DNA of 64,000 bases from Verrucomicrobiota bacterium (GCA_023269615.1 JAHFSY010000008.1:68052-132051), one strand, 5' to 3'. Shown: positions 4,807 through 61,643, counted from the first letter of the stretch. Translations and numbers: made by a program. The notes: generated by a model not told the origin, from the sequence alone.

Positions 4807-4959
4807 TCCATCAATGGACTGGCGCTTGAATTAGAAAGGCAGTGAAGAGGCTGTTCAGAAGTGATTATAGACGAAAATGGCTGCATCGAGAATCGCATCA
4901 ACGATGGCGATCAGTTTTTTCCATCAATCATGGTTCATGTTGCGATGAAAATTCAGATG

Positions 4960-9798: not shown

Positions 9799-9923
9799 GC
9801 GCACAACATACCCCAACCCGCCGCGTGTGAAAATGGACGGACGTGCGAATATATGGACAATCCAGGCATGTTTGCGAACATTTGGAGTCTGGCAGCCCCC
9901 CTCTACCACCACACCGCTTGATA

Positions 9924-10736
9924 TCACAATGACCCGGACTTCTCCTGGGATGCCAGTACGACCAACATCTGGTAGAATCTGAAGGTGTGATTGTCATCCG
10001 GGCTTTGGGCTGTTTCGGACTGGTAGCGATTCAACACATCCTCAATAAACGTCGCCCGCCTGGATTCGGGGATGAGCCGCGTCCATTCCACGAAAGTAAC
10101 CTGGCAGAATCCGGCGAACGCTTCGCGGGTTTTGAAATCCCAGGCCCTGTCCATCAGCTCGATCCGCACGACACGGAACCCGGCCCGCTCAGCCATGACC
10201 CGGTACTCTGCCGGGGGATAATGCGCGTACGGTTTTCGATAGTCCGCGAAATATTCCGTCCAAGTCTTGGACCTTCGAGTGTCTTCAATCACATCTTCGA
10301 GGCTCTTGCGGTCACCTTCCGGCACAAACCTGAGAAGTGCGGAACCCCCGGGCTTCAATGCCTGGAGGATGGCACGGAGCGCCTTCTCTTGTTCGGGAAC
10401 CCAATGCAGTGCGTTGAATGAGATCACGAGGTCAAACTGATTCCGGTAGGTCATCGAGCGCACATCCGCCACTTTGAAATGAAGATTGGGGTGACCCGCC
10501 GGATCAAAGTGGCCGGACGCAAATGCAATCATCTGGTGGGACGGGTCAACACCGAGGGCCGAGCCCCGGGGCAGGCGTGCGACTACCTTCGCCGTGATTT
10601 TCCCATCTCCGCACCCAACATCCAGGATATGCTCCCCTCCCTTGAATTCCAAATGTCCCAACTGCTCCTCAGCCATGGCTTCCTGAAGGCTGGATTGTTG
10701 CGAATACTTAAGAGCGTTCCATTCCGTCATATTCAT
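9924..10736 (-). CDS. class I SAM-dependent methyltransferase (trans-aconitate methyltransferase-like)
   Basis: Motif I ILDVGCGDGKIT and acidic motif II; Tam-like overall. Confidence 0.8.
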   Translation of the reverse strand: MNMTEWNALKYSQQSSLQEAMAEEQLGHLEFKGGEHILDVGCGDGKITAKVVARLPRGSALGVDPSHQMIAFASGHFDPAGHPNLHFKVADVRSMTYRNQFDLVISFNALHWVPEQEKALRAILQALKPGGSALLRFVPEGDRKSLEDVIEDTRRSKTWTEYFADYRKPYAHYPPAEYRVMAERAGFRVVRIELMDRAWDFKTREAFAGFCQVTFVEWTRLIPESRRATFIEDVLNRYQSETAQSPDDNHTFRFYQMLVVLASQEKSGSL

Positions 10737-14170: not shown

Positions 14171-15347
14171 CTCCGTCCCTGCGGAGTTGGGGCAGGATGT
14201 TTTGGTGGATATATTCGCTGATGAGTTCTCCGGCGCAGCGATGTCCATTTTCATTCCAATGGCCACAGCCCAGGGTGGTGTTGGAAAATCCATGCAGGAA
14301 GAGATGCTCACGATCCGCCAGCCGTTGAAGCGGGCGTACAAGCGACAACTCCGCGATATGGTTTCGACGGCAAAATTCCTCGATGCGATCATCGGGATAA
14401 AACAGGGAAGCCGCCAGCCTCGCTCGCAACGCGCAGTCGGGATGGACCTGGATGGGATTGCTGAGGGTGACCACGAGGAGCCTTGACCCATCGGCCTTCA
14501 CCTCTTCATCGAGCTTTGCAATGAGCGCTTCGGTTACACGCCACGCATCGGACCACGCCTCATCGTGGGGTTCCAAATAGACGCCATCATTCAGGCCGCC
14601 CGGATTATTTCCTGCCGGGTGCATTGCCTGAACGAATCGAGATTTATACTCGTAGGCAAATTGAGCCAGATAGGATGCGTCCAGTATATGCTGAATGAAA
14701 CGGGTGCGTCTCGAAGTAAGCTGCCGGTATTGGGGCGACGCGAGAAAGGAATCATCCTCTTCCAGTCGATTTTCATGACAAACGAAAAATGGGCGTGTGC
14801 GTTCGCGCTCAAGCGCACGCGAGTTTTCGCGGATGTCATTGCCAGTGAAGACGGCAAGAACGACCAGGTCCGGCGAATAATGACGGACGCAGTGTCGATA
14901 TGCGAGCAACTCCTGGGCCGTACCGTAGCCGGACACTCCGAAGTTCAAAACCTCCACGGGATCGTGCTGGGAGTCCACGGCGAGACGCTTGATCAAATCA
15001 CCTCCAATCACCTGGCAAAGCGAATTTTCCCAAGAAACATGAAATGCCTCCACGAACGAATCGCCGAGCACGGCGATGCGCAACACTCCGCGTGTTTTTT
15101 TGAGCGAGCGCTCCCGATCATGCCAACCCTGGCTGTTGATTTGCACATGGGAATGCCCCTCCTTGGAGTAGGATGCGCAGATGCCTGGTCGTAGCGACGC
15201 GCCCAGATGCAGGTCTGGCCTGTAGAAACCCGGGTAGGAAATCCCCATGAGCCGCAACGCAATTTCCAGAATTCCCATTCCCCCGATCAAGCCGATCGTG
15301 ATTGCCACACACCGGAATATGACTGGCTTGTGGTAGGGCGCGACCAC
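14157..15347 (-). CDS. SGNH/GDSL-type hydrolase with N-terminal TM anchor
   Basis: Block I VLGDSFVE, block II GVSGYG, block III GND. The ORF runs to 15740, but that would overlap the upstream gene (which ends at 15436). The likely start is the GTG at 15345-15347 just before the TM helix, though it is uncertain. Confidence 0.5.
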   Translation of the reverse strand: MVAPYHKPVIFRCVAITIGLIGGMGILEIALRLMGISYPGFYRPDLHLGASLRPGICASYSKEGHSHVQINSQGWHDRERSLKKTRGVLRIAVLGDSFVEAFHVSWENSLCQVIGGDLIKRLAVDSQHDPVEVLNFGVSGYGTAQELLAYRHCVRHYSPDLVVLAVFTGNDIRENSRALERERTRPFFVCHENRLEEDDSFLASPQYRQLTSRRTRFIQHILDASYLAQFAYEYKSRFVQAMHPAGNNPGGLNDGVYLEPHDEAWSDAWRVTEALIAKLDEEVKADGSRLLVVTLSNPIQVHPDCALRARLAASLFYPDDRIEEFCRRNHIAELSLVRPLQRLADREHLFLHGFSNTTLGCGHWNENGHRCAGELISEYIHQNILPQLRRDGVNRR

Positions 15348-15419
15348 CGGGCGCACCGCTGCGCAGAGGACGGCCCGGCGGTCCGTCCCTACCTCGGCGC
15401 GGCTATTTTCCGGACACGC
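15332..15419. repeat. GC-rich palindromic repeat, family GGTAGGG...CCCTACC, copy A
   Basis: About 90% identical over ~88 bp to 36828..36915. The arms are GGTAGGGCGCGACC(A/G)CCGGGC and GCCCGGCGGTCCGTCCCTACC. Confidence 0.7.
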
Positions 15420-28831: not shown

Positions 28832-28894
28832 TTCACCGCAGGCTGTAGGTGGCCTCGCTGAGGCCGCCCTCTTCCCCCCGCATAGCAGTGAATT

Positions 28895-28979
28895 CTTGTA
28901 GGAGCGGCTGTCAGCCGCGACCGGGAGACAGGGCAACCGGGGCCCTCGCCCCGGTCGCCGATGGCATCGGCTCCTGCAA
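28895..28979. repeat. REP-like palindromic repeat, family CTTGTAGGAGCSGCTGTCAGCSGCGACCGG
   Basis: Two head-to-head palindromic units, GCGGCTGTCAGCCGC and GCCGATGGCATCGGC, in convergent intergenic DNA. Same family as 61567..61643. Confidence 0.65.
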
Positions 28980-30306: not shown

Positions 30307-31209
30307 CTACATGTTCCGCAACCGAACCAGCCTCTCCGCGTTGCGATGGTAAATCTTCTCAACGACCTCCGACGGGAGGTCGAGCGTTTTCATGAAATCG
30401 TGCAGATCCTGCCCGTAATAATCCCGCGCGAAAAACAGGCGGTCCTGGTAACGCTTCAAAAATTCCACCGCATGAACGGGGTCTCTTTTCAATGCCGCCA
30501 ATCCCGACCCCGCCGAAAGGTCGGCGTATAAATTGGGACTCCTGTCGAGCAAGTCGTAAAGCCTCCCCCTTCCCTTGATCGGGCCAGACGGATACATCAC
30601 CGGATGATCCGCCGCATCGCCGCTGATTTCCCTCCAAAAGCCCGGCGCGTGACCGATGAAAATCGTTTCGGGACACGCCTTCAACGCGCGCTCCAGGTTT
30701 TCCGCCGTGCCACCGTACCAGTCGGGTTGATACACGCTTTTTCCATCGATCCGCAGGTAGGGAACATCCAGATGCAGCACGACCGGCAACTTCAACTCTC
30801 CGGCCACGCGAAACAGCTCCAGCGATCGCGGATCATCAAACGGGATTCGAAATTTCCATTCGCCGCACACGCGCACATCGTGGGTCTTCACCGCCTCGCG
30901 CAACATCGCGGGCGCGCTCGGGTTGGCGGGATGCGGACAATATCCCACCACAAATCGATCCGGATAATGCTGGCGCGCCAGAAGCAGGTCCCGCAACAAA
31001 ATCCCCGCATGCGTCCCGTCCTCGCGCATATTCAGCGGGTTGAGACACTTGTGGTAGACCTCGTTGTCCTCGCAACGCGGAATCTCCCAGCTCAAGAGCC
31101 ACGCGTACTCGATCCCGTGCGCGTCCATGTCCGCAATGAGACCCTTGTCATCCCTCCCATGCCAGAACACATGCTGGTGCGTGTCAATGATGCGCGATGG
31201 TTTGATCAT
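30307..31209 (-). CDS. amidohydrolase-family metal-dependent hydrolase (TIM barrel)
   Basis: DTHQHVF metal-binding HxH at the N-terminus and a later HxxxHLD...D pattern. The ORF extension to 31302 crosses a repeat element and is judged non-coding. Confidence 0.7.
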   Translation of the reverse strand: MIKPSRIIDTHQHVFWHGRDDKGLIADMDAHGIEYAWLLSWEIPRCEDNEVYHKCLNPLNMREDGTHAGILLRDLLLARQHYPDRFVVGYCPHPANPSAPAMLREAVKTHDVRVCGEWKFRIPFDDPRSLELFRVAGELKLPVVLHLDVPYLRIDGKSVYQPDWYGGTAENLERALKACPETIFIGHAPGFWREISGDAADHPVMYPSGPIKGRGRLYDLLDRSPNLYADLSAGSGLAALKRDPVHAVEFLKRYQDRLFFARDYYGQDLHDFMKTLDLPSEVVEKIYHRNAERLVRLRNM

Positions 31210-31228
31210 GATGAGAAAGCCGATTTTC

Positions 31229-31342
31229 GCCACGGATGGAACAGGGATGAAACACGGATTTCGTTCCGCCACGGCGGGAGTGCGACCCATTGATGAGAAC
31301 AAGGGATTCCGTATCCGTGTTTCATCCGTGTCAATCCGTGGC
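31229..31342. repeat. MITE-like element with inverted terminal copies of GCCACGGATGGAACAGGGATGAAACACGGAT
   Basis: Terminal copies at 31229-31259 (+) and 31311-31342 (inverted) flank a 51-bp spacer that contains CCGCCACGGCGG. Confidence 0.55.
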
Positions 31343-31356
31343 TGAATCCCATTTCT

Positions 31357-32610
31357 TCATTCCCTTGAAAAATGTCCGGCGACCTTGCGGATGGCCTCCG
31401 CAGTGCCGTCGATCCATTTTTCATCCATCGCCTCGTTGAACGGCATGAGCACGCAGTTGGCAATGATTTCCTCCGTCCGCGCGCATGATACCTTGGTGTA
31501 ATCCATCGAGGTAAGCCCCATCTCCCGGATCGGCCAGCGACCCGCGAAGAAGTTCTGCTTCTGGAAGATCGGATACTTGTAAAGCGGCATCGCGATGTAA
31601 CCCTCGCTGCAAGGAACACCCTCCGCCTTCAACGCCTCCACAAATTCCTTGCGGCTGCATGACAACGCACGGAAATCCGGATGCAGGATGTAAAACCAGA
31701 AACTGCAACGGTTTCCTTCATTCACTTCGTGCGGATGAATTCCGTGGATATCCTCCAGCCTGGACGTAAGCCGAAACCCCATGGCGGAGCGCTTCTCCAC
31801 GATCCCCTCCAAGCGCGTCAACTGCGCCGCCGCCACAGCCGACTGCGGTTCGGTAATGCGATAGTTCGGCGCGAGAAATTCCGGCGTCCTCGTCCCGCCC
31901 ACGCGGTCATACGCCTTGTCACCGAACTTCTGGAGCACCGGCCCAAAACGCCCGTCGTTCGACGCCACGATCCCGCCGTCACCGCACCCGATGTGCTTGA
32001 AATCGTTCAGCGAAAAACAGGCGATGTCCCCGACGGTCCCCAACGGTTTCCCGCGAAACTTCGCGCCCCATGCCTGCGCGCAATCCTCGATCAGCACCAG
32101 CTTGTGCCGGTCCGCCAGGTCGCGGAGTTCATCGATACGGCATGGGTTTCCCATCAGATGAACGGCGATGATCGCCTTCGTTCGCGGCGTGATTTTTTTC
32201 TGAACATCCGACGGGTCCGGATTGCACGTGTACCTCTCGAGGTCGGCAAAGACCGGCACGCCCTGCTGGTAAAGAATCCCGATCACCGTCCCCATGTCCG
32301 TGATCGCCGTGGTAATTACTTCATCCCCGGGACCGATTCCCGCCGCCGCCACCGCGATGTGCAACGCCGCCGTCCCGGAGGAACAGGGCATCACATGCTT
32401 CAAAGGATAAAGTTTCTGGAAGCGCTCCACCAACAGCCGGGTCTGCGGCCCGTTCCAGTAAAACAACGACTTCTGTTCCAGCATCTCATCCAGCTGGCGC
32501 TTTTCGATGCCACCCCATCGAACGGGCTGTGGAAATGGCTGCGTGATCGCGGGTTTGCCGCCCCGAATGGCGAGGCCCTCCTTCTTCTTCGCTGCGATGG
32601 TGGCGCTCAT
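31357..32610 (-). CDS. DegT/DnrJ/EryC1/StrS-family PLP-dependent sugar aminotransferase
   Basis: Family fold with AAL..., the DE..A motif and a C-terminal region. Start chosen at MSATIAAKKKEG; the ORF extends to 32874. Confidence 0.8.
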   Translation of the reverse strand: MSATIAAKKKEGLAIRGGKPAITQPFPQPVRWGGIEKRQLDEMLEQKSLFYWNGPQTRLLVERFQKLYPLKHVMPCSSGTAALHIAVAAAGIGPGDEVITTAITDMGTVIGILYQQGVPVFADLERYTCNPDPSDVQKKITPRTKAIIAVHLMGNPCRIDELRDLADRHKLVLIEDCAQAWGAKFRGKPLGTVGDIACFSLNDFKHIGCGDGGIVASNDGRFGPVLQKFGDKAYDRVGGTRTPEFLAPNYRITEPQSAVAAAQLTRLEGIVEKRSAMGFRLTSRLEDIHGIHPHEVNEGNRCSFWFYILHPDFRALSCSRKEFVEALKAEGVPCSEGYIAMPLYKYPIFQKQNFFAGRWPIREMGLTSMDYTKVSCARTEEIIANCVLMPFNEAMDEKWIDGTAEAIRKVAGHFSRE

Positions 32611-36181: not shown

Positions 36182-37473
36182 TGTTTCCCCTCCTTGTCCA
36201 CCCAACCCAACTCCCGGATCTTTCGCTCCATCAGCGGCATCATCACATCCGCCATCCGACGGTGCCCCTCGTCGGTCAAATGCAGGTTGTCGTAAAACAG
36301 GGAGGAATCCAGCGCACCGAAAAGGTTCTCGAAATCTGACGTCCGCTGCTTCGTCCAAGCCACCTCCTGCGCCACCACCGTCTTATATTCGGATTCCTTC
36401 ATCGCAGTCTTCAGCAGCAACGGATTGACGGGACAAAGATAAACAAGCGACTGCGCCCCGCCTCTCGCTTTCACGTCCGCAAGCAACCGCTCGAGACAAA
36501 TGTGGTCCGTGGAACCGGTCTCGATCCGAAATGGATGCTCGCGACGGAATCTTTCGAAGCGCGCCTTGTCCCACAATTCCGGCCTCCACGTCTCGGAACG
36601 CGATTTGCGCGTCAGCCATTCCGCCCATACATCCGGCATCCATGAAGCCTGACGAAACCGGTCCCGTGAAACCAGCGTCCCGCCCGCATCCGTGCCGCCG
36701 AAAAGAAACATGTTCATCCGCTCGCGATAGCGGATCATCGGAATCCAGCGCTCCGCCACGCGCGACAATTGCTCCTCGTTCTCCCCTCGCCATTTCATCC
36801 ATCCGGACTGCGTCTGCTCATTTAAAGGTAGGGCGCGACCGCCGGGCGCGCCGCTGCGCAACGGACGGCCCGGCGGTCCGTCCCTACCTCGAACGGATGA
36901 TTCCCCGGACACGCTCGCGCATTTCTCCAACCACGACGTCTCGGCAAGCGGCCCATCCGTCCCATGGGCCCATTCATCCGGGCGAATCTGCAAAATCACC
37001 AGCGCACCAGACGGCAGATCAAGCTGGCGCAACAACGCCAGCTTTTCCGGCGCATTGGCCCCGGCCACGGAAAAATTGTCCACCGCGATGTCGTCCGACG
37101 GAAACCGTTCCCGCAGTTTCTTCTCAAGCAGCGCGCAAAATGTTTTGGAAGCCGGCGTGCGCCCGCCAAAACTCACGGAATCGCCGATCCACACGATGTG
37201 ATGCCCCCTGTCCAGACGCCTCCAGGCGCGAAACGCATTCCAGCTTCGTTCATCCGAAATCCCAAAGGCACGGTCCATGGTACGAAGATGCGGATTCAAC
37301 CGCGAAAAAAAATCATCGCCACAAAGCGCCAGCCAGGCATTGAGCAGGACGACAAACAGAAGGGCCCACAACCAGACGGCACGGCGCAAAAAGGGCGCGG
37401 CGCGCCATCGCGCCTCGGCAGGCCGCGCCACCGCAAAATCAGTTTCGGGAAGAGGCTGGCTCATGGTTTCCAT
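36178..37473 (-). CDS. SGNH-hydrolase-type partner of the MBOAT (AlgJ/DltD/PatB-like), carrying an in-frame repeat insertion
   Basis: N-terminal TM anchor, IVWIGDSVSFGG block I, and a C-terminal DNLHLTDEGH block. Residues 194-214 are encoded by the palindromic repeat 36828..36915. Confidence 0.6.
   Translation of the reverse strand: METMSQPLPETDFAVARPAEARWRAAPFLRRAVWLWALLFVVLLNAWLALCGDDFFSRLNPHLRTMDRAFGISDERSWNAFRAWRRLDRGHHIVWIGDSVSFGGRTPASKTFCALLEKKLRERFPSDDIAVDNFSVAGANAPEKLALLRQLDLPSGALVILQIRPDEWAHGTDGPLAETSWLEKCASVSGESSVRGRDGPPGRPLRSGAPGGRALPLNEQTQSGWMKWRGENEEQLSRVAERWIPMIRYRERMNMFLFGGTDAGGTLVSRDRFRQASWMPDVWAEWLTRKSRSETWRPELWDKARFERFRREHPFRIETGSTDHICLERLLADVKARGGAQSLVYLCPVNPLLLKTAMKESEYKTVVAQEVAWTKQRTSDFENLFGALDSSLFYDNLHLTDEGHRRMADVMMPLMERKIRELGWVDKEGKQ
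36828..36915. repeat. GC-rich palindromic repeat, family GGTAGGG...CCCTACC, copy B (inside a CDS, in frame)
   Basis: GGTAGGGCGCGACCGCCGGGCGCGCCGCTGCGCAACGGACGGCCCGGCGGTCCGTCCCTACC plus a shared 3' flank. It matches 15332..15419. Confidence 0.7.
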
Positions 37474-38314: not shown

Positions 38315-38338
38315 GGGGAAATGAGAATAAGAATTTTA

Positions 38339-38368
38339 GCCACAGATGCACACGGATGAAACACGGAT
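38339..38368. repeat. solo copy of the CACGGATGAAACACGGAT motif (GCCACAGATGCACACGGATGAAACACGGAT)
   Basis: It lies 25-54 nt upstream of the iscX-like start codon, in the same orientation as the other copies. Confidence 0.55.
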
Positions 38369-38404: not shown

Positions 38405-39535
38405 TCATCCCGCTTCGGATGCCGCCTTGATCAACTCCTCCTCCGTCCATGGCTGGCCCTTGGGGGTACGGACATTGGGCAGCGCGGACATGCGCTTGAT
38501 GAGGTCGTCCTTCACCACGCACTTCTGGTATGCCTCCATCGGTTCCACCATTCCCTTGGACACATAATCGAGGAGCGAATCGTTGAGCGAACACATGCCC
38601 TCCTTTCGCCCGGTCTGGATCAGCATCGGGATCTGGTGAATCTTGCCCTCGCGGATGTTGGCGCCAAGGGCATGGCTGCCCATCAGAATCTCCAGGGCGG
38701 CCACGCGGCCTCCACCCTTCTTCTTGCAAAGCGTCTGGGCGATGACACCCTTCAAACCCTCGGCAAGGCCCGAACGCACCTGCTGCTGTTGCTCGGTCGG
38801 AAACTGGTTGATCAAACGGTCCACGGTCTGCGCCGCCGTGGTCGTGTGCAGCGTTCCAAACACAAGGTGGCCCGTCTCCGCCGTCTCGAGGGCGATCATG
38901 ATCGTCTCCAGGTCGCGCATTTCACCGACGAGCACGATGTCGGGGTCCTCGCGCAACGCGGCGCGCAGCGCGCGCTTGAAACTGCCGGTGTGCTCGTGCA
39001 CCTCGCGTTGGTTGACGAGGCACTTCTTGTTGGGATGCACAAACTCGATCGGGTCCTCGATCGTGAGGATGTGGTCCTCTCGGCTGTCATTGATGAAATC
39101 AATCATCGCCGCCAGCGTGGTGGATTTTCCGCTGCCCGTGGGGCCCGTCACAAGGACCAATCCCTTGGTAAGGAAACAAAGTTTCTTGATGGGTTCCGGC
39201 AGGTGCAGATCGGCAAAGGTCAGGATTTTTGATGGAATCAGGCGGAAGACGGCGCCGATGCCCTTGCGGTCGGCAAAAATATTGCAGCGATAACGAGCCA
39301 CGCCTTCGAGCGAATAGGCGAAATCGGTGTCCTTGCATTCCTCCCATTCCTGGCGGTTGCGCTCGGGAAGGATCTCGTAGATGAGGGACTTGACGATGTC
39401 GGTGGTGAAAAGCTGGTCGCTCACAGCCGTCATGGTCCCCGAAATGCGGAACATCGGAAAATGCTCGCTGGAAAGGTGAAAGTCGGAGGCCTTTTGTTCA
39501 ACCATCGCGCGAAAGTAATCATCGAGTGCAGCCAT
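38405..39535 (-). CDS. pilT: type IV pilus retraction ATPase, PilT/PilU family (paralog 1)
   Basis: PilT N-terminal domain (ASDFHL), Walker A GPTGSGKSTT, Asp box, Walker B and His box. Start chosen at MAALDDYF. Confidence 0.85.
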   Translation of the reverse strand: MAALDDYFRAMVEQKASDFHLSSEHFPMFRISGTMTAVSDQLFTTDIVKSLIYEILPERNRQEWEECKDTDFAYSLEGVARYRCNIFADRKGIGAVFRLIPSKILTFADLHLPEPIKKLCFLTKGLVLVTGPTGSGKSTTLAAMIDFINDSREDHILTIEDPIEFVHPNKKCLVNQREVHEHTGSFKRALRAALREDPDIVLVGEMRDLETIMIALETAETGHLVFGTLHTTTAAQTVDRLINQFPTEQQQQVRSGLAEGLKGVIAQTLCKKKGGGRVAALEILMGSHALGANIREGKIHQIPMLIQTGRKEGMCSLNDSLLDYVSKGMVEPMEAYQKCVVKDDLIKRMSALPNVRTPKGQPWTEEELIKAASEAG

Positions 39536-39587: not shown

Positions 39588-39793
39588 AAGCACGGATGCG
39601 GAGCCCTGGGTCCAGTTTCTCCGCAGATTAACGCAGGATCACGCAGATTTCTGAACGGCATTCAACCGTGCCATTTTCAAGCGTCACCTCGGTGGCGGTT
39701 GAAAATGACACGGTTGGGATCAAGGGCAGGCTTTGCGACTTTGCGACTTTGCGCGAAACCTTCTGAAAATCTGCGTCCATCTGCGAAATCTGC
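39588..39793. repeat. ~200-bp nested imperfect palindrome with GACTTTGCG direct repeats (MITE-like)
   Basis: Outer arms CTCCGCAGATT...CGCAGATTTC and GAAAATCTGCG...ATCTGCGGAG; inner arms CCGTGCCATTTTCAA and TTGAAAATGACACGG; three copies of GACTTTGCG; then CTTTGCGCGAAAC. Confidence 0.55.
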
Positions 39794-39826
39794 GGAGAAC
39801 CCGGGACCAAGGGCTCCGGTCCACAC

Positions 39827-40365: not shown

Positions 40366-41496
40366 TCATTTCCCCTCGGCCGAGGCCTTGACCAGCTCAT
40401 CCTCCGTCCATGCCTTTCCACCAGGCCCCCGCACATTGGGCAGATCGCCCATGCGCTTGATCAGCTCATCTTTCGCCACGGCTCGGCGGTAGGCCTCGGT
40501 GGGCTCGATGACCCCCTTGGAAACATAATCCAGCAGCGCGTCGTTCAGCGAACACATGCCTTCTTTTCGCCCGGTCTGGATCAGCATGGGAATCTGCTGG
40601 ATCTTGCCTTCGCGGATGTACGCGCTGAGCGCCGCGCTGCTGAGGAGAACCTCCATGGCGGCCACACGGGTGCCGTCTTTCGTCTTGCACAGGGTCTGGG
40701 AAATCACACCCCTTAATCCCTCAGCCAGCGCAACGCGAACCTGAGATTGCTGGTCGGAGGGGAACTGGTTGATCAGTCGGTCAATCGTGCCGGGCGCCGT
40801 CGTGGTGTGCAGCGTCCCGAATACCAGGTGCCCCGTCTCCGCGGTCTCAATCGCAATCATCACGGTCTCCAGGTCGCGCATCTCACCGATCAGCACGACA
40901 TCCGGATCCTCTCGCAGCGCCGCCCGCAGCGCGCGTTTGAAGCCGTCGGTGTGAATGTGCACCTGACGCTGGTTGACAAGGCACTTTTTGTGGGGATGAA
41001 CGTATTCGATCGGATCCTCGATCGTGATGATGTGATCGCTGCGGTTTTGATTGATGAAATCAATCAGCGTCGCAAGCGTGGTGGTTTTGCCGCACCCGCT
41101 CGGCCCCGTGGCCAGCACAAGCCCCTTCGTGAGAAAGCAAAGTTTCTTGATGCACTCGGGCAGGCGCAGCTCCTCAAAGGTAAGCACACGCGATGGAATC
41201 AGGCGGAAATTTGCCCCGATCCCATCCTTCGTCTGCGATACATTGCAGCGATAACGCCCCACATCGGGAATGGCATATGCAAAATCCGTGTCATGCATCT
41301 CCTCCCATTCGAGGCGATTGCGCTCCGGCATGATCTCGTAAATAAGCTGCTGGGCCATCTCGGCCGTCACAATTTCATCGCTGACCTTCGTGATCACCCC
41401 ATAAATGCGGAACATGGGATAATGCCCGCTGACCAGGTGAAAGTCAGACGCCGTCTGGTCCACCATCGCGCGAAAATAATCGTCAAGTGCAGCCAC
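40366..41496 (-). CDS. pilT: PilT/PilU-family ATPase (paralog 2)
   Basis: Collinear with paralog 1 (MAALDDYFRAMVDQTASDFHL...GPSGCGKTTT...). Confidence 0.85.
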   Translation of the reverse strand: MAALDDYFRAMVDQTASDFHLVSGHYPMFRIYGVITKVSDEIVTAEMAQQLIYEIMPERNRLEWEEMHDTDFAYAIPDVGRYRCNVSQTKDGIGANFRLIPSRVLTFEELRLPECIKKLCFLTKGLVLATGPSGCGKTTTLATLIDFINQNRSDHIITIEDPIEYVHPHKKCLVNQRQVHIHTDGFKRALRAALREDPDVVLIGEMRDLETVMIAIETAETGHLVFGTLHTTTAPGTIDRLINQFPSDQQSQVRVALAEGLRGVISQTLCKTKDGTRVAAMEVLLSSAALSAYIREGKIQQIPMLIQTGRKEGMCSLNDALLDYVSKGVIEPTEAYRRAVAKDELIKRMGDLPNVRGPGGKAWTEDELVKASAEGK

Positions 41497-41660: not shown

Positions 41661-42788
41661 TCACTCCTCGGCCGCCGCCTTGATGAGGGCGTCCTCGGTC
41701 CATGGCTGCCCCTTGTGATCGCGGATGTTTGGAAGGGCCGCGATGCGCTTGATGATGTCATCCTTCACCACGGCTTTCTGGTACGCCTCGGGGGCTTCCA
41801 CGATACCCTTCGAAACGTAATCAATGAGCGAATCGTTCAGCATGCACATGCCCTCCTTGCGACCGCTCTGCATGAGCATCGGGATCTGGTGAATCTTGCC
41901 CTCGCGGATGTTCGCGCCCAGCGCGTGGCTGCCCATCAGGATCTCCAGCGCCGCCACGCGCCCGCCCCCCTTCTTCTTGCACAAGGTCTGCGCCACCACG
42001 CCCTTCAACCCCTCCGCCAGGCTCGCCCGGATCTGTGGCTGCTGCGGCGCGGGGAACTGGTTGATCAACCGGTCCACCGTGCTCGGCGCGGTGGACGTGT
42101 GCAGCGTTCCAAACACCAGGCTCCCCGTCTCCGCCGTTTCCAGGGCGATCATGATCGTCTCCAGGTCGCGCATCTCACCGACCAGCACAATGTCCGGATC
42201 CTCGCGCAACGCCGCCCGCAACGCGCTCTTGAAGCTCTTCGTATTCACGTGAACCTCCCGCTGATCCACCAGGCACTTCTTGTGCGGATGCACAAACTCG
42301 ATCGGATCCTCGATCGTGATGATGTGATCGGTCCTCGTATTATTGATGAAGTCAATCATCGCCGCCAGCGTGGTGGACTTGCCGCTGCCCGTCGGCCCGG
42401 TCACAAGCACCAGCCCCTTCGTGAGAAAACAAAGCTTCTTGATCGCCTCGGGAAGATTCAACTGCTCGAAGGTCAGGATCTTCGATGGAATCAGGCGAAA
42501 GACTCCGCCAATCCCGTACTGGTCCGCAAAGACGTTGCACCGATACCGCCCCACTCCCGTCACCTCATAGGCAAAATCCGTGTCATGCGATGTCTCCCAC
42601 TCGACCCGGTTGCGCTCGGGCAGGATTTCGTAAATCAGGCTGCGCACATCCTCCTCCGAAAATGCCTGGTCGCTCACCGGCGTCATGGTGCCGGAAATTC
42701 GGAAATTCGGAAAGGTGCCGCTGGTCAGGTGAAAGTCCGAAGCCTTCTGATCCACCATCGCTCTGAAATAGTCGTCGATCGCCGCCAT
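41661..42788 (-). CDS. pilT: PilT/PilU-family ATPase (paralog 3)
   Basis: MAAIDDYFRAMVDQKASDFHL...GPTGSGKSTT...; full length. Confidence 0.85.
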   Translation of the reverse strand: MAAIDDYFRAMVDQKASDFHLTSGTFPNFRISGTMTPVSDQAFSEEDVRSLIYEILPERNRVEWETSHDTDFAYEVTGVGRYRCNVFADQYGIGGVFRLIPSKILTFEQLNLPEAIKKLCFLTKGLVLVTGPTGSGKSTTLAAMIDFINNTRTDHIITIEDPIEFVHPHKKCLVDQREVHVNTKSFKSALRAALREDPDIVLVGEMRDLETIMIALETAETGSLVFGTLHTSTAPSTVDRLINQFPAPQQPQIRASLAEGLKGVVAQTLCKKKGGGRVAALEILMGSHALGANIREGKIHQIPMLMQSGRKEGMCMLNDSLIDYVSKGIVEAPEAYQKAVVKDDIIKRIAALPNIRDHKGQPWTEDALIKAAAEE

Positions 42789-42941: not shown

Positions 42942-42995
42942 GCTTCGCGCACCGGATATCGGGACGCTGGCGTCCCGATATCCGGTGCGCGAAGC
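42942..42995. repeat. perfect 54-bp palindrome (25-bp arms, 2-nt centre)
   Basis: GCTTCGCGCACCGGATATCGGGACGC-TG-GCGTCCCGATATCCGGTGCGCGAAGC. It lies between the thioredoxin-like gene and pilT paralog 3. Confidence 0.7.
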
Positions 42996-44360: not shown

Positions 44361-44390
44361 GCCACGGATGAACACGGATGAAACACAGAT
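44361..44390. repeat. solo copy of the CACGGATGAAACACGGAT motif (GCCACGGATGAACACGGATGAAACACAGAT)
   Basis: It lies upstream of the thioredoxin-like gene and downstream of the giant gene. Confidence 0.5.
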
Positions 44391-44427
44391 AAGCCAGTGC
44401 TTGGCACGCCAATGGTTCCCACAAACA

Positions 44428-47400
44428 TCATTCCTTGGCCCCCGCTTGTTTCAGGGCATCTGCAATATCCGCGCGCTTGATCCGGATGGCGATGGAAAGC
44501 GGCGTTTCACCTCTTTGACTCCGGGCGCGGGCGTCCGCGCCGGCCTTGAGCAGTAACCGTACGATCAGCAGGTCTCCCTGTTCCACCGCAGCCATCAACG
44601 GGGTTGTCCCATCGGAATCAGATACGTTCGGTTTAGCCCCCTTCTCCAGAAGCAGCATAAGGAGCTCAGGATGTTTGCGCGTGATGGCGCTCAGGAGCAT
44701 CCGCCCTCCCAAACCTTTTACGTCCGCCCCCGTGTTGATCGCCGCTTCCGCCTTCTCATAACTTCCCTCCGTCACGGCGGCATCCAGGTCCGTGGATGCC
44801 TTAAACAACACATCCCCGCTTTGGGCACCTGCCTTCTTGAGAATCTCCGCGACTTCAGGGTGCCTCTGCTGTCTGGCCACATCCAGGGCTGTGCAAGGCG
44901 AAAAAATCGCGCCATTGTCATAGCAGGCGAGAAAGTCGGGGTTGGCTCCCTTGGAAAGCAGCAGTTTCACGTTTTCCGTTGCTCCGAAGGCGGCCGCATT
45001 GAAGATCGCGGTGCGTCCCCCATCGCCGCGCGAGTTCACATCGCCGCCCTGCTCAATCAAGTATTTCAACCCTTCGGATTTCTGTTGCTTGACAATTTCC
45101 TGCATGGGCGGCCCCGTCTTCGCGCCCTTGGAGATCAGGAATTTCGCAATTTCCCATTGTTGATTCAATACCGCAATGCAAAGCGGCGTCAGTCCTTCAA
45201 CCGTGCTTTCCGTCTCATTGTAAGCCATGGGCGCATCCAGTTGCGAACCACGGTCAATCAAAAACTTCGCCATCTCGAGATGTCCATTTTCCGTCACGGT
45301 ATGGAGCGCCGTGCAACTTTTGTTTGTCTTTGAATTCACGTTGGCGCCATGGGCAAGAAGCGCTTCCACCACTTCGGGATGGCAGCCATCGGCCGCAAAC
45401 ATCAGCGGCGTGCAGCCGATCCTGGACCTCGCATTTACATCCGCACCCTTTTCCAAGAGCAACTGAACCATCTCGAGGTGCCCCGCAGTTGAAGCGAAAA
45501 TGAGCGGCGTCCAATCATTCTCATTCCGCCCATCCACCTTCGCCCCCTTTACCAGCAACTCTCTGACCCCAGCCAGGTCCCCTTTCTGGGCGGCGGCAAG
45601 CAACGCCATGCCCAGATTTTCCGCAGTCACCTTCACCCCGGCCTTCTCCAACATTGTCATGATTTCCGTCTCGTTGTCCCTCTTGTTGTCCGGAGCCGTC
45701 CCTTGCGCGATGGAAAGGGCGTTCTTCCCATCCTTGTTGCTGACATTCACATCGGCACCGGCCTCGATCAGCACGCGAGAGATCGAGAGATTGGAGGATT
45801 CCACGCCGGCGAGAAACGGGGTCATTCCCTCGGCGTCAACCGCATTGAGGTTTGCGCCCTTGGCCAGCAGGAACTCAACGCTTTCCAGGTTGCCATGCCT
45901 TGCGGCAAGGATCAGAGACGTCGAGTTCTTCCCGTCGTGAGCGTCCACCTGGGCGCCACGGTCGAATGACGTTTTCAACTTCGGCACATTACCCGTTTCT
46001 GCGGCGTCCAACAGGGCCTCATCCGCAGTCTCGATAGGCGGGACGGATTTCGACAGGCCCGATTGGTGCCACCACTGCTCCCACAGGGCATAATGATCAC
46101 CAAACGCCTGGCCCGTCAGTTTCTCCAGGGCGTCAATGAGTTCATTCTGCACCGCCGGCTTGTTATACACGATAGAACCGTTGAGAAACGTGCTGGAGGC
46201 ATCGTCCGGCCTCCAAAACACCTCCAATAAATACGGAATGGCCGCCGGATCACCGATCCGGCCCATGGCCCCGGACACTTTCTCCTCGGAAAAAGCGTCT
46301 CGGGTCAGCGGTTTTGCGACAATGGGAATCAGCCTCTTCTCCGGGAAATACTTTCCGATATTGTCAACGACTTCTCGTGCGCGGGGGTTTTTCGCCGCGT
46401 CCCGCATGGTTTGATCCAGATAGGCCAGGGCATCCGAATCACCCGCCCTGCACAAGACCGCCAGCAGGATCAAATCCGCATCGTAACCGTCCTTGTAACT
46501 GCGGGACGATTTGACGATGGAAATGATTTCCGGGTCATAGTCGCCCGCCATGAGCAAATCCAATGCCGCCTCGTTGCAAGGCGGGGAATTGCGATCATTC
46601 AAGATGGCCCGAAGGCGGGGCTTCGCTTCCACGCCGCCCAGCAAAATCACCGCGCGAACGGCCTCCTGACGCACTCCAACATCCGGATCGCCGAGAAGCA
46701 CGGCCACCTGATCGAGATGATCCCTGCTTTTCAGCTTTCCAAGTTGTCTCACGGCAATACCCCTCACACGGGGTTCCGCATCCGACAAGTACCCGAGAAA
46801 GTCGGGAACGAATGATTTCAAGCAGATCTCGCCGAGGACATCCAGCGCCTCGGCACGCGCGTCCCCACTCTCGGAGCGGCTCGCCGCAATCTTGATCAGA
46901 TAGGGAACAGCCCTCTCCCTGCCTTTGACGTCCGGGTAGCGAAGGCCCCCAAGCAGAAACCGGCGTCTTTTCTTATCACCTCCCGCGTCTTGAGTAATCG
47001 CAATGAATTCATCCACATGGCCTAGACCTCCTTTCCCTCCGGAGGTTGTCACAAGCATACTTGCCTCAAATTTCTCCAGGGAAACCATGTGGGAAGGCGC
47101 GGCATGGTTGAAGCTGCGAAAATCCTCAATAGGAAGGGGCAGCACCTCGCGGGGAACGAATAAAATACACTTGTTTTGAGGGTCATATACCATGCTGGGA
47201 ATTTGCCCGTTGAAATCCGCTTCCATTTCGATGGAAGACAAGGATCTTCGGAGCACCGTCCCGTTGTCCCTCGACAACTCGAAGAGTTCGCCAAGGGAGT
47301 TGCCCACGTAAATCCTCCCCCCCAGAGCCACAGGCACGGCAATGGGTGTCCAATCCTCAAACTTCCACCGGACCTTGCCCGTGGCACGATCCAGGGCGTA

Positions 47401-50400
47401 GAGAACTCCGTCCAACATGCTCGGAAAAAGAATCATGTCCCCATCGAACACGACACATGCGGCCAGGACATCAAGGTCCGTGTGCGTTCGCATGATATCG
47501 TGCCGCTCCTTCAGGTAAGGACGCCCCGGGTGGGCATCATGGCTCCACAAGACCGTCTTGCCCGTTGAGTCCCTGTATGTCAGCACTCCGCTCTCCGACA
47601 CATCATACTGGGATGCACCCTCCTGTCTTTCCGGATCAGGGACTTTTGAGGTCACCGGCAACGGATTTCTCCCGATTGTCCCTTCCGCAGTGGCTGTCAT
47701 GGTCACGGGCACTCCAGCTTTGAAGTTCAATATCGCCAAACAACCCTGTCGAATCACATCTGCCTGGTCTCCCTTCACCGTCTGTTTCTCAACCGCTTTG
47801 AAGTATTCTTCAGCCTTTTCATCGTTGCCCGAGACCCGATGCATCATCCCCAACGCTTGAAGTGCTTGCATGCATTCCAGCGTGTTGGGATGTGCCTGCA
47901 CCACTTCCTCAAGCTGTTTTGCCATCTGTTCCTGTTGCGGATTCAGCTGGGCGGCCGCGCTTGTCTTGGAAGGTTTGCGCGGGACGGATTTGGAATTCAA
48001 CACCATCGAACAACTCTCGCGGATCTTGTCCGCCTTTTCCCCTTTCACCGCCTGTTTCACAACGGCCTGAAAGCATTCCGCGGACTTTTCAGCGTGCCCC
48101 ATCCTACGATGCATCCACGCCAGCTTTTCGAGCGCTTGCATGCATTCGAGCGTGTTGGGATGCGCTTGTGCCACCCCTTCAAGAAGTTTCATCACCTGTT
48201 CTTTTTCCGCGCTCGATTCGGCTTTCTCGGCAGCCATCATCACCACTTCAGGGTCGCTGGTGCCGATGGAGAGAAGTTCCTTCAAGGCCTTCCCCGCCTG
48301 GATCGGTTTCTGTTTTGAAATGTTTTTGCTTACCGCCTTCAACAGCTCGATCTTCCGGGGATTCGGTGATGTACCCATCAAACGGATGATGGCAGCATAA
48401 GAAGGGGTCAAGGTATCAATCACCGGCGCCCGGTTCCACGCTGGCGATGGAGGCGTGATGACCCATGGAAGGTTCAGATACACACGGAGCGCCGCCGCAC
48501 GATCTCCCAAGACTTCGTACAGCCTTCCGCACTCATAAGAGGGGGTTTTGACCCTGCCGAGCGTTGCCAGCGCGTCACTTGCCCTCCCCAACTCCTGCTG
48601 GGCCCGGGCTAGGTTGAACCTTGCGATGTCCGCATCGACTCCGCGCTTCGCACGATCCGCCAGGGCCCTCTTCCACAATTCCTCCTCCTCTGTGGTCCTC
48701 TTGAGTCTTCTCAAAATTCCACCCGCGGCTTCATAGTATGGCCATGGGTCATCCTTCGCTTCCGCAATCTTCATTCCCTTGTAAAAGCTCGACAACGCCT
48801 CTTCATCCTCCTCCTGCTTCAGGTACTCGGTGCCCATCTTGAAATGATAATCCGGAGTGTCCGGAGAAACGTACGCAGCGGTTTTCACCTCCTTCATCTT
48901 GTCAGCACCCCCGGTGTAAATTCTCGACTCGAGCCAGCTCATGAACGGATTTCGTGCGGCGTCATCCCCGGCGCGCGATGGTTTTCCCAAGGCGGAGGCC
49001 AGTTGTCGGCCCAGCGCGTCAAGATCATCCAGCTTGCCCTCGACATCCACCACGTTGAGCAGGGCCCCTTTCTCCACGTCAATCAGACGGGCCGAGATGG
49101 CGATTTTCCCCTCCTTGAGCCCGTAAAACCCGCTGACGATGGCGTTGGCCTTGAGCAACCCGCCCAGCTTCAACGCCGTCGCCTCGTCCGCAACCGCCTG
49201 AATCCCCTGCTCCTTGAGGACGGATTTGATTTTTTCCCGCTCCACCACCCTCATGGTTTTCCCGGATGACAACGCCGTGATCAGCACATCGTCAATCGCC
49301 CCATCAGACAACGATGCCCCCTCCAACGTCAGCGGATGAAATCCGGTGACCGCGATGGTCTGGACCGGCAACTGCTCCTCCCCGCGCTTCGCGGCGGAAT
49401 CTCCCCCCTCCACAGGAAAACGTTTTTTTATTTCATCCAGCAACATGGAAGCTGTTTTCTCCTCGTCCATGTTTTCCACTGGAACACTCACCAACCGTTC
49501 CCGCCTCGAATTTTTGAAATCATCCATCCAGACGTCCAGAACACGCGAGTAGCCCGCATTCCGTCCCCCGACGTGCAGGACCAGGTCTGCGGTCAACGCG
49601 TTCTTGAAACTCTTCACCTCGTCACCCTCCGCCTCGGAACCCAGCTGGGCCAGTTGCTTCTCATCGAACAGGGAGGATGCCGTGGTTCTTTCCACAAGTT
49701 CGAGTCCGGGAGTGTTACTGAGATATTGAAGAAACTTGGCGTGAGCTGAATTCACGCGTATATCCGCGCCAGCATCTGAGACCAGCGACACACGCAAGGG
49801 ACGCGCCGGGGTCGGCACCGCAATCACCGGGTAACCGCTGAACCCGGGAATCATCCTCACCCGCACGGGCAGGTTGTGCTCGTAGGCGCCCACGTCCGCA
49901 AGCCAACTCGTCGCGCGCGTCACGCCGGTCACTTCCAGTGTGTAAAAGTACGCGGTCCCGTTACGGACATCCTTGTCCACATACTCTGTCATGTTGGCCC
50001 GGGTTCGAAAAATCTCACGGTCCGGAGAAACCTGGAGCTTGTTGGCCCGTATCGTCGCATGACTCTGATCCGTGCGCCGGAGCACGAAGTAAGGACCCTC
50101 CGCCCAGTCTTTTTCATTCCATGGGAAGGAATCCCAACGCAACCGGACCTGTCCATCGTCCGCCCATGCGACCAATCCCGTCGGCAGCGGGTTCCTCACC
50201 GCAGAAACTGTCGCGGTCCGCATCTCCTTCTTGTCCGGGCCGCCCCAGTGGAAAACATAGTCGCAACGCTCGGAAAACCCAGGCCACTCGTAATAATTCT
50301 CATTCTGCCAGTCATTGCGGTCCAAAAATTTCCCGAAAATCCCTCGACGACCCTGGACCTGACTGTTGATTTCAAACGTCCAACCCTTGTGACCCAACGT

Positions 50401-51603: not shown

Positions 51604-52571
51604 TCGGGCGCACGGTTTTTGAGCGATTCCTGTCGCTCGGCCTCATTCTCGACCTCCTCAATGACTTTCATCACCTCGGGATGTTCATTCATGCTGGCAT
51701 GCTTGTGGGCCGAACTTCCATCCCGGTCGGTTTTGCTCCAGTCGGCGCCCTTGCCGAGGAGATACTTCACGATCTTGACGTGGCCTTCCTGCGACGCAAA
51801 CATCAAGGGCGTCTGCCTGAGCTGGTTCAGGGCATTGATGTCCGCCCCCTTGTCGATCAAAAACTCCAGGACTGCCGGATGATTGTTCGACGCGGCGATG
51901 ATTGCAGCCGTGTTGCCGACGTCATTTCTTCCCTCGAGATCAGCCCCGCCGGCAACCAGGAGCTTCACCACCTCCAGATGTCCGTTCGCCGCGGCCGCGA
52001 CAAGTGGGGCGATCCTGCCTCCCTTGGCGCTTGCATCCGCCCCCTTGGCGAGAAGTAGTTTGGCCATTTCCACGTTTCCCGTCTGAGCCGCCATGTTCAT
52101 CGCAGTGCCGCCATCGAACTCGATGGCCTTGGGATCGGCCCCCTTCTCGAGTAGAAATTCCGCGATGGCGAGATGTCCCTGGTTGGCCGCCATCGCCAAC
52201 GGCGTCGATGCCTTTGCGCCTTTTGAATTCACATCCGCACCCTTCGCCACCAGGAGCTTCACAATTTCCATCTGGCCGATGAACGCGGCCTGAGCAAGAA
52301 CGCTGCCTCCCGTCTTCCGCTTCACATGCACATCCGCGCCGGCGGAGATCAAGACCTGCGCAACTTCCAAATGTCCATACTTCGCAGCAAGGCAAAGAGG
52401 CGAACTCCCCTCTTCATCCTGGACATCAATCTTCGCACCTTTCTCAAGCAGGATCTTCACCTGCGCCGCATCCCCGTCCTTCGCCGCCGCAAGCAGTTGC
52501 GCATCCTGATCCTGCCCAAACAAAACGCCCGCAGCCAGGACCAGAGCGAGGAATACGATGCAGGCTTTCAT
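51600..52571 (-). CDS. secreted ankyrin-repeat protein (323 aa)
   Basis: Signal peptide MKACIVFLALVLAAGVLFG, then 8-9 ankyrin repeats. It overlaps the giant gene's start by 4 bp. Confidence 0.85.
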   Translation of the reverse strand: MKACIVFLALVLAAGVLFGQDQDAQLLAAAKDGDAAQVKILLEKGAKIDVQDEEGSSPLCLAAKYGHLEVAQVLISAGADVHVKRKTGGSVLAQAAFIGQMEIVKLLVAKGADVNSKGAKASTPLAMAANQGHLAIAEFLLEKGADPKAIEFDGGTAMNMAAQTGNVEMAKLLLAKGADASAKGGRIAPLVAAAANGHLEVVKLLVAGGADLEGRNDVGNTAAIIAASNNHPAVLEFLIDKGADINALNQLRQTPLMFASQEGHVKIVKYLLGKGADWSKTDRDGSSAHKHASMNEHPEVMKVIEEVENEAERQESLKNRAPE

Positions 52572-58523: not shown

Positions 58524-58636
58524 GCCACAGATGGACACGGATGAAACACGGACTTGTTGGCGCTTGCCACGGCAAGCGCCGTCATGCTGAATCAGCTTGC
58601 TGAGCATCATCCGTGTAAATCTGTGTTGATCTGTGG
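58524..58636. repeat. MITE-like element with inverted terminal copies of the CACGGATGAAACACGGA motif
   Basis: GCCACAGATGGACACGGATGAAACACGGA at 58524-58552 and its inverse ATCCGTGTAAATCTGTGTTGATCTGTGGC at 58608-58636. They flank the hairpin GGCGCTTGCCACGGCAAGCGCC. Confidence 0.55.
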
Positions 58637-58659
58637 CTGTTTTCATTCTTTTGCGGAAA

Positions 58660-61549: not shown

Positions 61550-61566
61550 TTGCCTCCGTTTTCGCC

Positions 61567-61643
61567 CTTGTAGGAGCCGCTGTCAGCGGCGACCGGGGAA
61601 CAGGCCGACCCCGCGGATCGCCGCTGACAGCGGCTCCTACAAG
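61567..61643. repeat. REP-like palindromic repeat (CTTGTAGGAGCCGCTGTCAGCGGCGACCGGGG ... inverse)
   Basis: Near-perfect 32-bp inverted arms with a 10-nt loop. Same family as 28895..28979. Confidence 0.7.

Follow-up and report, generated by a model that had tools for sequence, protein, structure and literature searches.

Inverted three-box repeats in intergenic spacers of a Verrucomicrobiota bacterium as probable gene-less derivatives of a GxxExxY cassette family

Short motifs that recur between unrelated genes may mark a mobile element, a control site for the neighboring genes, or neither, and this is the question raised by a 30-bp motif in the genome of a Verrucomicrobiota bacterium (GCA_023269615.1). 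The stretch analyzed here, referred to as the window, comprises 64,000 nt (JAHFSY010000008.1:68052-132051), with positions counted from its first nucleotide. The original prediction had noted six copies of the motif, arranged as two inverted pairs and two solo copies, and had interpreted them either as a MITE with ~30-bp terminal inverted repeats or as a shared operator/promoter. All six copies were located, and none is expected by chance: a 30-nt pattern with up to three mismatches gave 4 matches in the window versus 0.00 expected, and the 18-nt core CACGGATGAAACACGGAT gave 6 matches versus 0.05 expected. Each copy (hereafter, arm) is 29 to 31 nt long and consists of GC followed by three direct CAC(A/G)GAT boxes with a period of 10 to 11 bp, in agreement with the direct repeats that had been predicted within the motif. 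The arms occupy four loci, besides which there is one locus of a sister dialect, and each inverted pair measures 114 nt. While the predicted plus-strand positions of the pairs were borne out, the minus-strand arms begin at 31313 and 58609, not at 31311 and 58608. The relevant features of the window are as follows.

31207-31228: outer extension of pair 1, of ATGAGAAAGCCGATTTTC type, weakly inverted with respect to 31343-31364 and resembling 38317-38338.
31229-31259, plus strand: gene-proximal arm of pair 1, 31 nt, GCCACGGATGGAACAGGGATGAAACACGGAT, three boxes, the middle one CAGGGAT; 19 nt separate it from the downstream amidohydrolase ATG (31209).
31260-31312: spacer of pair 1, 53 nt, with a CCGC-CACG-GCGG hairpin at 31266-31277.
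31313-31342, minus strand: distal arm of pair 1, with 14 nt between its GCC end and the stop codon of DegT (31357-31359).
31343-31364: distal outer extension of pair 1, TGAATCCCATTTCTTCATTCCC, including the DegT stop codon.
38339-38368, plus strand: solo arm, located upstream of the iscX-like ATG (38314) at a distance of 24 nt; the PilT-like gene ends (38405) 36 nt away.
39619-39648 and 39769-39797: inverted arms of a probable sister element, with CGCAGAT boxes of 11-bp period and a 120-nt spacer.
39729-39757: period-8 CGCAAAG arm nested in the spacer of the probable sister element.
44361-44390, plus strand: solo arm, located upstream of the thioredoxin-like ATG (44267) at a distance of 93 nt; the giant ORF ends (44428) 37 nt away.
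44401-44412: TTGG-CACG-CCAA hairpin beside the preceding solo arm.
58524-58553, plus strand: gene-proximal arm of pair 2, 52 nt upstream of the CsgG-like ATG (58471).
58554-58608: spacer of pair 2, 55 nt, with a GCGCTTGC-CACG-GCAAGCGC hairpin at 58560-58579.
58609-58637, minus strand: second, diverged arm of pair 2, GCCACAGATCAACACAGATTTACACGGAT; a stop codon (58660) lies 22 nt away.
61926-62094: further CGCAAAG pair.

Folded as single-stranded DNA, each pair yields a long hairpin (pair 1, -37.1 kcal/mol and z = -7.0; pair 2, -35.8 kcal/mol and z = -6.5), and the solo copies remain unfolded (z = -1.1 and +1.0). The small hairpin predicted in the ~50-bp spacers is real. It has the form stem-CACG-stem, with unrelated stem sequences, and is found in both pair spacers and beside the solo arm at 44361; it was not encountered among the 73 pairs of other genomes and hence is peculiar to the window genome. 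The extension at 31207-31228, which overlaps the neighboring start codon, likewise represents a genome-specific lengthening of the inverted repeat. Neither of the window solo arms has an inverted box within 450 nt; elsewhere, ~40% of solo arms keep a degraded partner within that distance.

All six arms are intergenic and lie in short spacers between co-directional genes. The neighboring genes (Amidohydro_2, DegT aminotransferase, IscX-like, PilT-like ATPase, thioredoxin-like, and CsgG-like) are functionally unrelated. The plus-strand copies do lie upstream of minus-strand ATGs, as predicted (19, 24, 52, and 93 nt), but this results from the fact that every neighboring gene is on the minus strand. 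The position would suit a shared operator or promoter that is bound by a common regulator and controls the downstream genes, as would two properties of the arms themselves. Their outer flank is often GGCTAAAAT, which resembles a -10 hexamer, and their seven conserved and four variable bases, with an 11-bp period on one helix face, recall PhoB/OmpR operators such as the Pho box. The direct repeats recognized by response regulators indeed consist of 7 conserved bp plus a 4-bp linker, with the same 11-bp period. Unlike these operators, the arms have no fixed promoter position or orientation and no regulon, and the likeness is one of binding geometry only.

The positional statistics point the same way. 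Genes in the other loci were called with a custom codon-statistics caller, the orientations from which are reliable and the start codons approximate. One of 138 elements was inside a called gene. Solo arms, at distances of -46 to 610 nt from a gene, faced a gene start in 29 cases and a gene end in 27, thus showing no preference relative to start codons; in co-directional spacers, the two orientations numbered 15 and 14. Many arms adjoin stop codons, 13 of 27 lying at most 20 nt away. The pairs were found between co-directional genes in 61 cases, convergent genes in 9, and divergent genes in 3 (baseline, 462, 97, and 99) and are therefore depleted in divergent-promoter regions (3 seen versus ~11 expected). 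The motif is also missing upstream of orthologous genes: 63 metagenomic loci with amidohydrolase orthologues (up to 75% identity) had 1 arm in 287 kb, compared to 6 in the 64-kb window, and no arm was present in any of the 16 orthologue upstream regions read. Finally, a scan for sigma-70-like promoter hexamers was empty at the window copies, and the neighboring genes have no function in common. The operator/promoter reading is not supported and is already largely refuted; we consider it extremely improbable. Two other binding sites were considered: a CsrA-type RNA site, the SELEX consensus of which is similar to ACA-GGAUG in the arm, and a DnaA box, which the GGAT core resembles. Both were dropped, as the elements are scattered and solo arms may point either with or against transcription.

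More than 119 stretches from species-representative genomes contain the exact 18-mer and, among the first 80 matches listed, 47 were from Planctomycetota, 29 from Verrucomicrobiota, 2 from Gallionellaceae, 1 from KSB1, and 1 from an unclassified source. The loci plus the window contained 216 arms, with three boxes in 185, two in 27, and four in 4; the reversed-sequence control for the arm search gave 0 arms. Across the 119 loci, neighboring arms formed 78 plus-minus pairs with their GCC ends outward, 4 minus-plus combinations, and no plus-plus combination, and all four minus-plus neighbors belong to a single tandem array with a 121-bp repeat (L064). The spacers of the pairs are 6 to ~400 bp long and mutually unrelated in sequence. 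At its outer end, the conserved block reads (A-rich)TTTTA directly followed by GCC, the outer end of the arm being (T)AGCCAC. The flanks of the pair are inverted too (TTTTAGCC...GGCTAAAA), so that the TA beside GCC/GGC is part of a symmetric TTTTA-GCC...GGC-TAAAA flank, seen at about half of the ends. In some lineages, including the window genome, the inverted repeat reaches ~20 nt further outward.

A comparison of the DegT-amidohydrolase junction between species points to insertion of the element. In L208 (Verrucomicrobiae, GCA_028687435.1), the stop-start gap is only 2 nt (TGAccATG) and there is no arm, compared to 147 nt in the window, 114 of which correspond to the pair. The 138-nt spacer in L209 contains a different inverted element, made of AAGGC/CTTAGG units, and no arm of the window type, while L133 has a solo arm of the CGCAGAG type. 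These differing contents indicate that the junction was filled independently by different members of a wider class. Apart from an identical protein, the best matches to the DegT protein are from Verrucomicrobiae, with up to 71% identity, so that the window belongs to a Verrucomicrobiae-like organism. The amidohydrolase on record is extended through the element (327 aa versus 300), and no exact-protein record was found with the start at 31209. What points to mobility is this between-species comparison of filled and empty sites only: strain-level presence/absence polymorphism was not observed, near-identical contigs (L183 to L189 and L207) being 100% identical across the element.

Target-site duplications flanking the pairs, which the original prediction had suggested checking, were not found in 80 pairs. 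Direct repeats of 2 to 8 bp at offsets of 0 to 6 did not exceed permuted controls, and the same dinucleotide was present on both sides in 18 of the 80 pairs versus 18.5 expected. This absence of target duplication is more compatible with a homing- or recombination-type copying than with DDE transposition.

The pairs with the longest spacers (375 to 521 bp; L003, L014, L077, and L110) provided a clue to the origin of the arms. Each encloses one ORF of ~122 aa in the order plus arm, gene, minus arm. The ORF matches PF13366 PDDEXK_3 (E = 2e-34) and NCBIfam TIGR04256, "GxxExxY protein" (E = 3e-35), a family with function listed as "Unknown" in a survey of the PD-(D/E)XK superfamily (PMC3424549). 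The catalytic E...D...(E/D)xK residues are invariant in GxxExxY proteins, and the predicted model (pLDDT 93.8) has a PD-(D/E)XK fold; the nearest solved folds, those of Cas4 and of Hjc, a Holliday-junction resolvase, are generic for nucleases of this type. The full-length relatives with the same arms encode GxxExxY, a predicted nuclease and not a known transposase.

The association of gene and arms was consistent in both directions. In the arm-selected loci, 11 of 12 tblastn matches to GxxExxY were within 100 nt of an arm. Since these loci had been chosen for their arms, the converse was examined with homologues picked by protein search alone, and all three (P0101, P0081, and P0087, on contigs L198 to L200) had arms on both sides, 1 to 70 nt away. 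No gene type other than PF13366 PDDEXK_3 was enclosed by arms in the 119 loci. Some cassettes interrupt tight operons, as between moaC and moaD in L203 or between dciA and gyrB in L198 (arm, 9956-9984; gene, 10001-10357; arm, 10374-10402), and L199 has the same plus arm, gene, minus arm arrangement as L198. A profile search additionally detected N-terminal GxxExxY fragments (HMM positions 1-48, 3-32, and 7-32) in L013, L053, and L087. Those in L053 and L087 are inside pairs with 184- and 191-bp spacers, and the one in L013 adjoins an arm; a C-terminal fragment (profile positions 95-122) is located beside an arm in L200. The presence of fragments in shorter pairs indicates that intermediate pairs are deletion derivatives of gene-carrying pairs.

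Based on these data, the window copies are probably gene-less and solo derivatives of a GxxExxY cassette family, with the arms as the cassette ends. The complete cassette is composed of an arm (AGC-CACGGAT-N4-CACGGAT-N4-CACGGAT), a ~122-aa GxxExxY/PDDEXK_3 gene 1 to 100 nt inside, and the same arm inverted, and the window copies would be two MITE-like inverted pairs (53- and 55-nt spacers) plus two solo arms from which the gene has been lost. No GxxExxY gene or fragment was detected in the 64-kb window by profile search of the six-frame translation, and so the copies are callable as derivatives only. Some loci count against the cassette reading. In L183, the gene is outside the neighboring pair, between a minus arm and a plus arm, and both L200, a duplicated or nested version of the cassette, and L064 resemble products of duplication or unequal recombination, not of clean transposition. 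The L064 array and L200 indicate that unequal recombination between arms also occurs.

The sequence of the arms varies with the protein that they flank. A second GxxExxY subfamily is ~35% identical to the first, and its representative at one end of L015 has upstream of it an arm that is built in the same way but from CACGAAT boxes. L202, L203, and two L206 genes have AACCACGAAT.GACACGAATGAACACGAAT-type arms on both sides, 1 to 100 nt from the ORF, so that AACCACGAAT-type arms accompany five of five second-subfamily genes (L015 included). An apparent extra 3' fragment in L202 turned out to be only a frameshift in that gene copy. In L133, the start of a GxxExxY gene is preceded, at ~80 nt, by an arm of a third dialect, CGCAGAG with an 8-bp period. 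The occurrence of dialect arms with diverse GxxExxY genes indicates that the association is a property of the family and not of one lineage.

Because the start codon assigned to these ORFs is often an ATG within the arm, N-terminal leaders in the databases report the dialect. When the GxxExxY profile was run against 1.84 billion cluster representatives, 30,179 matched at E <= 1e-3 and 10,888 at E <= 1e-10. A start of the form M[NDKGYH][TA][DN] was present in 24 of the best 150 50%-cluster representatives, versus 0.34 expected from internal frequencies. All 11 subfamily 1 leaders were of the TD/HG type (CACGGAT) and 0 of the TN type (CACGAAT), compared to 5 and 45, respectively, in subfamily 2; the mapping of dialect to subfamily is thus not strictly one-to-one (5 of 50 subfamily 2 leaders being of the other type).

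The arms are also under strong constraint. Across 11 complete subfamily 1 cassettes, DNA identity is 63% for the genes and 90% for the arms; in the same genes, codon positions 1 and 2 are 75% identical and position 3, near saturation, 40%. The higher conservation of the arms relative to coding positions indicates stronger purifying selection on the arms, which argues for a sequence-specific factor and against mere recent copying. Arms from the same pair are no more similar to each other than arms from different genomes (identity, 0.904 versus 0.899 +/- 0.008). Each arm thus appears to be kept to the consensus independently, the pairing itself not being maintained, and selection for arm-to-arm pairing was accordingly rejected.

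The latter result bears on a possible role at the RNA level, whereby the arms would pair in the transcript into a ~30-bp stem that brackets the nuclease ORF or sits between cistrons, acting as an RNase III site, a transcript insulator/stabilizer, or a terminator, like REP/BIME hairpins or rRNA intervening sequences. Such a role would be in line with the strong folding of both window pairs (z ~ -7), the preference of the elements for co-directional spacers and their depletion from divergent regions, and the location of cassettes within tight operons (moaC-moaD and dciA-gyrB). Yet the within-pair similarity gives no sign of compensatory pairing maintenance, and a stem needs neither three phased direct boxes nor 90% conservation across phyla. 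Solo arms, moreover, are common in both orientations relative to transcription, no T-tract or intrinsic terminator was found in a scan of the window copies, and Rfam at gathering thresholds returned nothing, hence no RNA family, on the window copies or six cassette loci. A selected RNA-level function appears quite unlikely, and any such effect may be a side effect of the elements.

The three boxes, one helical turn apart, would be binding sites for a sequence-specific protein. The likeliest binder is the cassette's own nuclease, which could bind as a multimer on one face of the duplex DNA. Recognition of the arms by the nuclease is suggested by their co-variation and by the constraint on the arms, although co-variation alone could reflect co-inheritance instead of recognition. 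This protein would promote the spread of the cassette, by copying or insertion, through a process that resembles homing or recombination and leaves no target duplication. Gene-less pairs would then arise by internal deletion and might be mobilized in trans; whether those in the window are inert or trans-mobilizable would depend on a matching nuclease in the genome.

Counting against recognition by the nuclease is that the protein consists of a 122-aa catalytic core alone and shows no obvious additional domain with which to read three head-to-tail boxes. The arms could instead be the cis sites of another protein, host-encoded or separately encoded, such as a recombinase, a transposase, or a nucleoid protein, the GxxExxY gene being a mere passenger (e.g., a defense or addiction gene) without a role in the spread of the arms and the window copies being sites or relics of that factor. 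Among the sampled loci, pairs that lack the gene are roughly 10 times as numerous as those that carry it, and the window has no GxxExxY gene, both as would be expected of a passenger. Multiple head-to-tail end sites are typical of DDE transposons like Tn7, Mu, and IS21, the transposases of which are far larger than 122 aa. Against this account, the arms enclose no different type of gene in the 119 loci, the target duplication expected of DDE transposition is absent, near-identical arms are found in two phyla, and the arm dialect tracks the GxxExxY subfamily, which would require a host factor to co-vary with a passenger. We therefore regard another protein as a rather doubtful owner of the arms.

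If, as we favor, the window copies derive from GxxExxY cassettes, their practical effect is probably limited to a strong palindrome and some extra spacer between formerly close-packed cistrons. At a broader level, it is conceivable, albeit more speculative, that GxxExxY/PDDEXK_3 proteins are the enzymes of an unrecognized class of minimal selfish elements that read their own dialect, spread without target duplication, move between Planctomycetota, Verrucomicrobiota, and further groups, and have left thousands of gene-less pairs and solo arms in intergenic DNA, those of the window included. BLAST gave no match indicative of plasmid or phage carriage, and in IMG/VR only 11 stretches have the motif, none of them with a GxxExxY gene.

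Compared with known systems, the element is MITE- or REPIN-like yet lacks defining features of each. The part of the MITE prediction that stands is that the copies are smaller than ~600 bp, multicopy, and intergenic, form inverted pairs, are absent at orthologous sites, and have full-length relatives with the same ends. As in Correia elements of Neisseria or ERIC/IRU of enterobacteria, they are 70 to 150 bp of noncoding DNA with ~30-bp inverted repeats, often located between co-transcribed genes and capable of forming strong hairpins. What does not fit is the missing target-site duplication, the unconserved interior, the composition of each terminal repeat (three phased direct boxes), the conservation of the ends in two phyla, and the nature of the full-length partner, a 122-aa PD-(D/E)XK nuclease and not a DDE transposase. 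REP/REPIN sequences with their RAYT proteins are also abundant short extragenic repeats, single or in inverted doublets, that flank one small gene thought to mobilize them, with co-variation of repeat and protein. However, the REP unit is an imperfect palindrome, whereas the arms are not self-complementary and start with GCCAC; RAYT is an HUH/Y1 (IS200/IS605-like) transposase and not a PD-(D/E)XK nuclease; and REP sequences are species specific, while the arms are ~90% identical across phyla. REPs have a conserved GTAG or CGTC head (PMC3733652), in contrast to the (T)AGCCAC outer end of the arms. Classical REPs of the GTAG type (PMC3733652) are also present in the window.

The ends of Tn7, Mu, IS21, and Tn552 are similar in having several short direct binding sites each and in being mutually inverted, but these elements are kilobases long, with large DDE transposases, TG...CA termini, and 5-bp target duplications, none of which is seen here. 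Free-standing homing endonuclease genes, such as that for the PD-(D/E)XK enzyme I-Ssp6803I, share with the cassette a small selfish intergenic nuclease gene, the lack of target duplication, and decay into fragments. They differ in that conserved inverted arms of 30 bp do not normally bracket them and in that each has a single cognate target site, in contrast to the many unrelated sites of the GxxExxY cassette, the nuclease activity of which is a prediction.

Taken by itself, the repeat in the window is short, extragenic, and of a familiar kind, and the new point is the gene that the arms flank. The GxxExxY orphan family, with its 30,179 representatives (E <= 1e-3), gains a defined DNA partner that is more conserved than the protein and changes with the subfamily, which opens the function of the family to direct assay. 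The arms also account for peculiar peptides ("MNTDKHG...", "MDTNEH...", and "IRVHPW...") in annotated Planctomycetota and Verrucomicrobiota genomes, as well as for gene starts that were placed too far upstream, and the element marks sites at which a strong palindrome has divided a tight operon. Nothing relevant on the motif, on GxxExxY (PF13366), or on MITEs of these phyla was identified in the literature searched, and neither the motif nor its association with GxxExxY genes was described there; the coverage was incomplete, so that an earlier description is possible.

A further pair of arms in the window, at 39619-39648 and 39769-39797, had been missed in the original prediction. Judging by its architecture only, it is a probable sister element, in which CGCAGAT takes the place of the CAC(A/G)GAT box, and a CGCAAAG arm is nested in its spacer. 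With the additional CGCAAAG pair at 61926-62094, the co-occurrence of CGCAGAT, CGCAAAG, and CAC(A/G)GAT arms in the window indicates that several dialects coexist in this genome.

Rearranged cassettes, in which the inverted arms and the GxxExxY nuclease gene no longer follow the simple layout, were found in comparison loci from other genomes. In L064 (positions 372-760), a unit composed of arm+, a 31-nt spacer, arm-, and a 27-nt linker is repeated in tandem every 121 bp, in three and a half copies, and a complete GxxExxY gene (821-1186) directly adjoins this array. L200 carries a duplicated or nested cassette (9859-10600) in the order arm+, 5' gene fragment, arm+, full gene, arm-, the right flank repeated as a 33-nt copy together with a 3' gene fragment, and a final arm-. 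This duplicated/nested order of arms and gene fragments suggests that the layout arose via recombination between copies. The L200 contig is planctomycete-like and also encodes an Acido-Lenti-1 sRNA (Rfam RF01687, 46.2 bits; 8597-8651) ~1.3 kb upstream of the cassette. Among the 150 best family representatives (P0361-P0510), about 30 are proteins of 250 to 295 aa with two GxxExxY domains, apparently corresponding to an adjacent cassette pair read through as a single ORF.

L183 possibly represents an insertion into a defence locus. Its DUF1016 gene (2535-3011) is shortened to the N-terminal 158 aa and stops where the arm and GxxExxY gene start, the site being adjoined by an MmeI-type restriction-modification gene.

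Inverted elements of probable sister dialects, i.e., variants of the box sequence, are present in the window:

39619-39648 and 39769-39797, arms of a CGCAGAT-box inverted pair, 11-bp period, between a PilT-like gene and the next gene
39729-39757, period-8 arm GGCTTTGCGACTTTGCGACTTTGCGCGAA, within the 120-nt spacer of the CGCAGAT pair
61926-62094, inverted arms with CGCAAAG-type boxes, 38 nt each, 8-bp period

Because the period-8 arm sits in the spacer of the CGCAGAT pair, 39619-39797 looks like one element nested inside another. The arms at 61926-62094 are 87% complementary, lie 93 nt apart, and enclose a perfect 23-nt palindrome (61993-62041). The same style of arm (CGCAGAG type) is found in L133 (around 4900-5010), where it lies 5' of the start of a GxxExxY gene.

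Three of the window arms have a small hairpin 6 to 10 nt inside them; the hairpins share the same CACG loop and have unrelated stems, and none was detected in 73 pairs from other genomes.

31266-31277, stem CCGC/GCGG
44401-44412, stem TTGG/CCAA
58560-58579, stem GCGCTTGC/GCAAGCGC

Two further repeat families in the window start with GTAG (GGTAGGGCGCGC... and TGTAGGAGCCGCTGTCAGCGGCGA...):

15329-15419, 36824-36914, and 59471-59582; also 28894-28979 and 61560-61650, GTAG-family repeats

Several are perfect inverted pairs of 28 to 33 nt, and both families resemble the classical GTAG-type REPs reported from the PVC superphylum (PMC3733652). The DegT|amidohydrolase junction, where window pair 1 lies, is occupied in a relative's genome (L209, 2645-2782) by a different inverted element, made of AAGGC/CTTAGG units (AAGGCCCAAGGTTCAAGGCATAAGCC ... 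CCTTAGGTCTTAGGCCTTGCACCTTAAGCC). Between convergent ORFs of the window lies another inverted repeat (42942-42995), whose perfectly matching 26-nt halves (GCTTCGCGCACCGGATATCGGGACGC / GCGTCCCGATATCCGGTGCGCGAAGC) are separated by a 2-nt loop.

Repeated genes and repeat-rich ORFs also occur in the window:

38405-39535, 40366-41466, and 41661-42788, three consecutive PilT/T2SSE-type ATPase paralogues
44428-51603, giant 2391-aa ORF
51735-52488 and 55864-57507, neighbouring ORFs

The ATPase paralogues share 70 to 80% DNA identity across long stretches. In the giant ORF and its neighbours, 99-nt (33-aa) periodic repeats abound, a period consistent with ankyrin-type repeat proteins.
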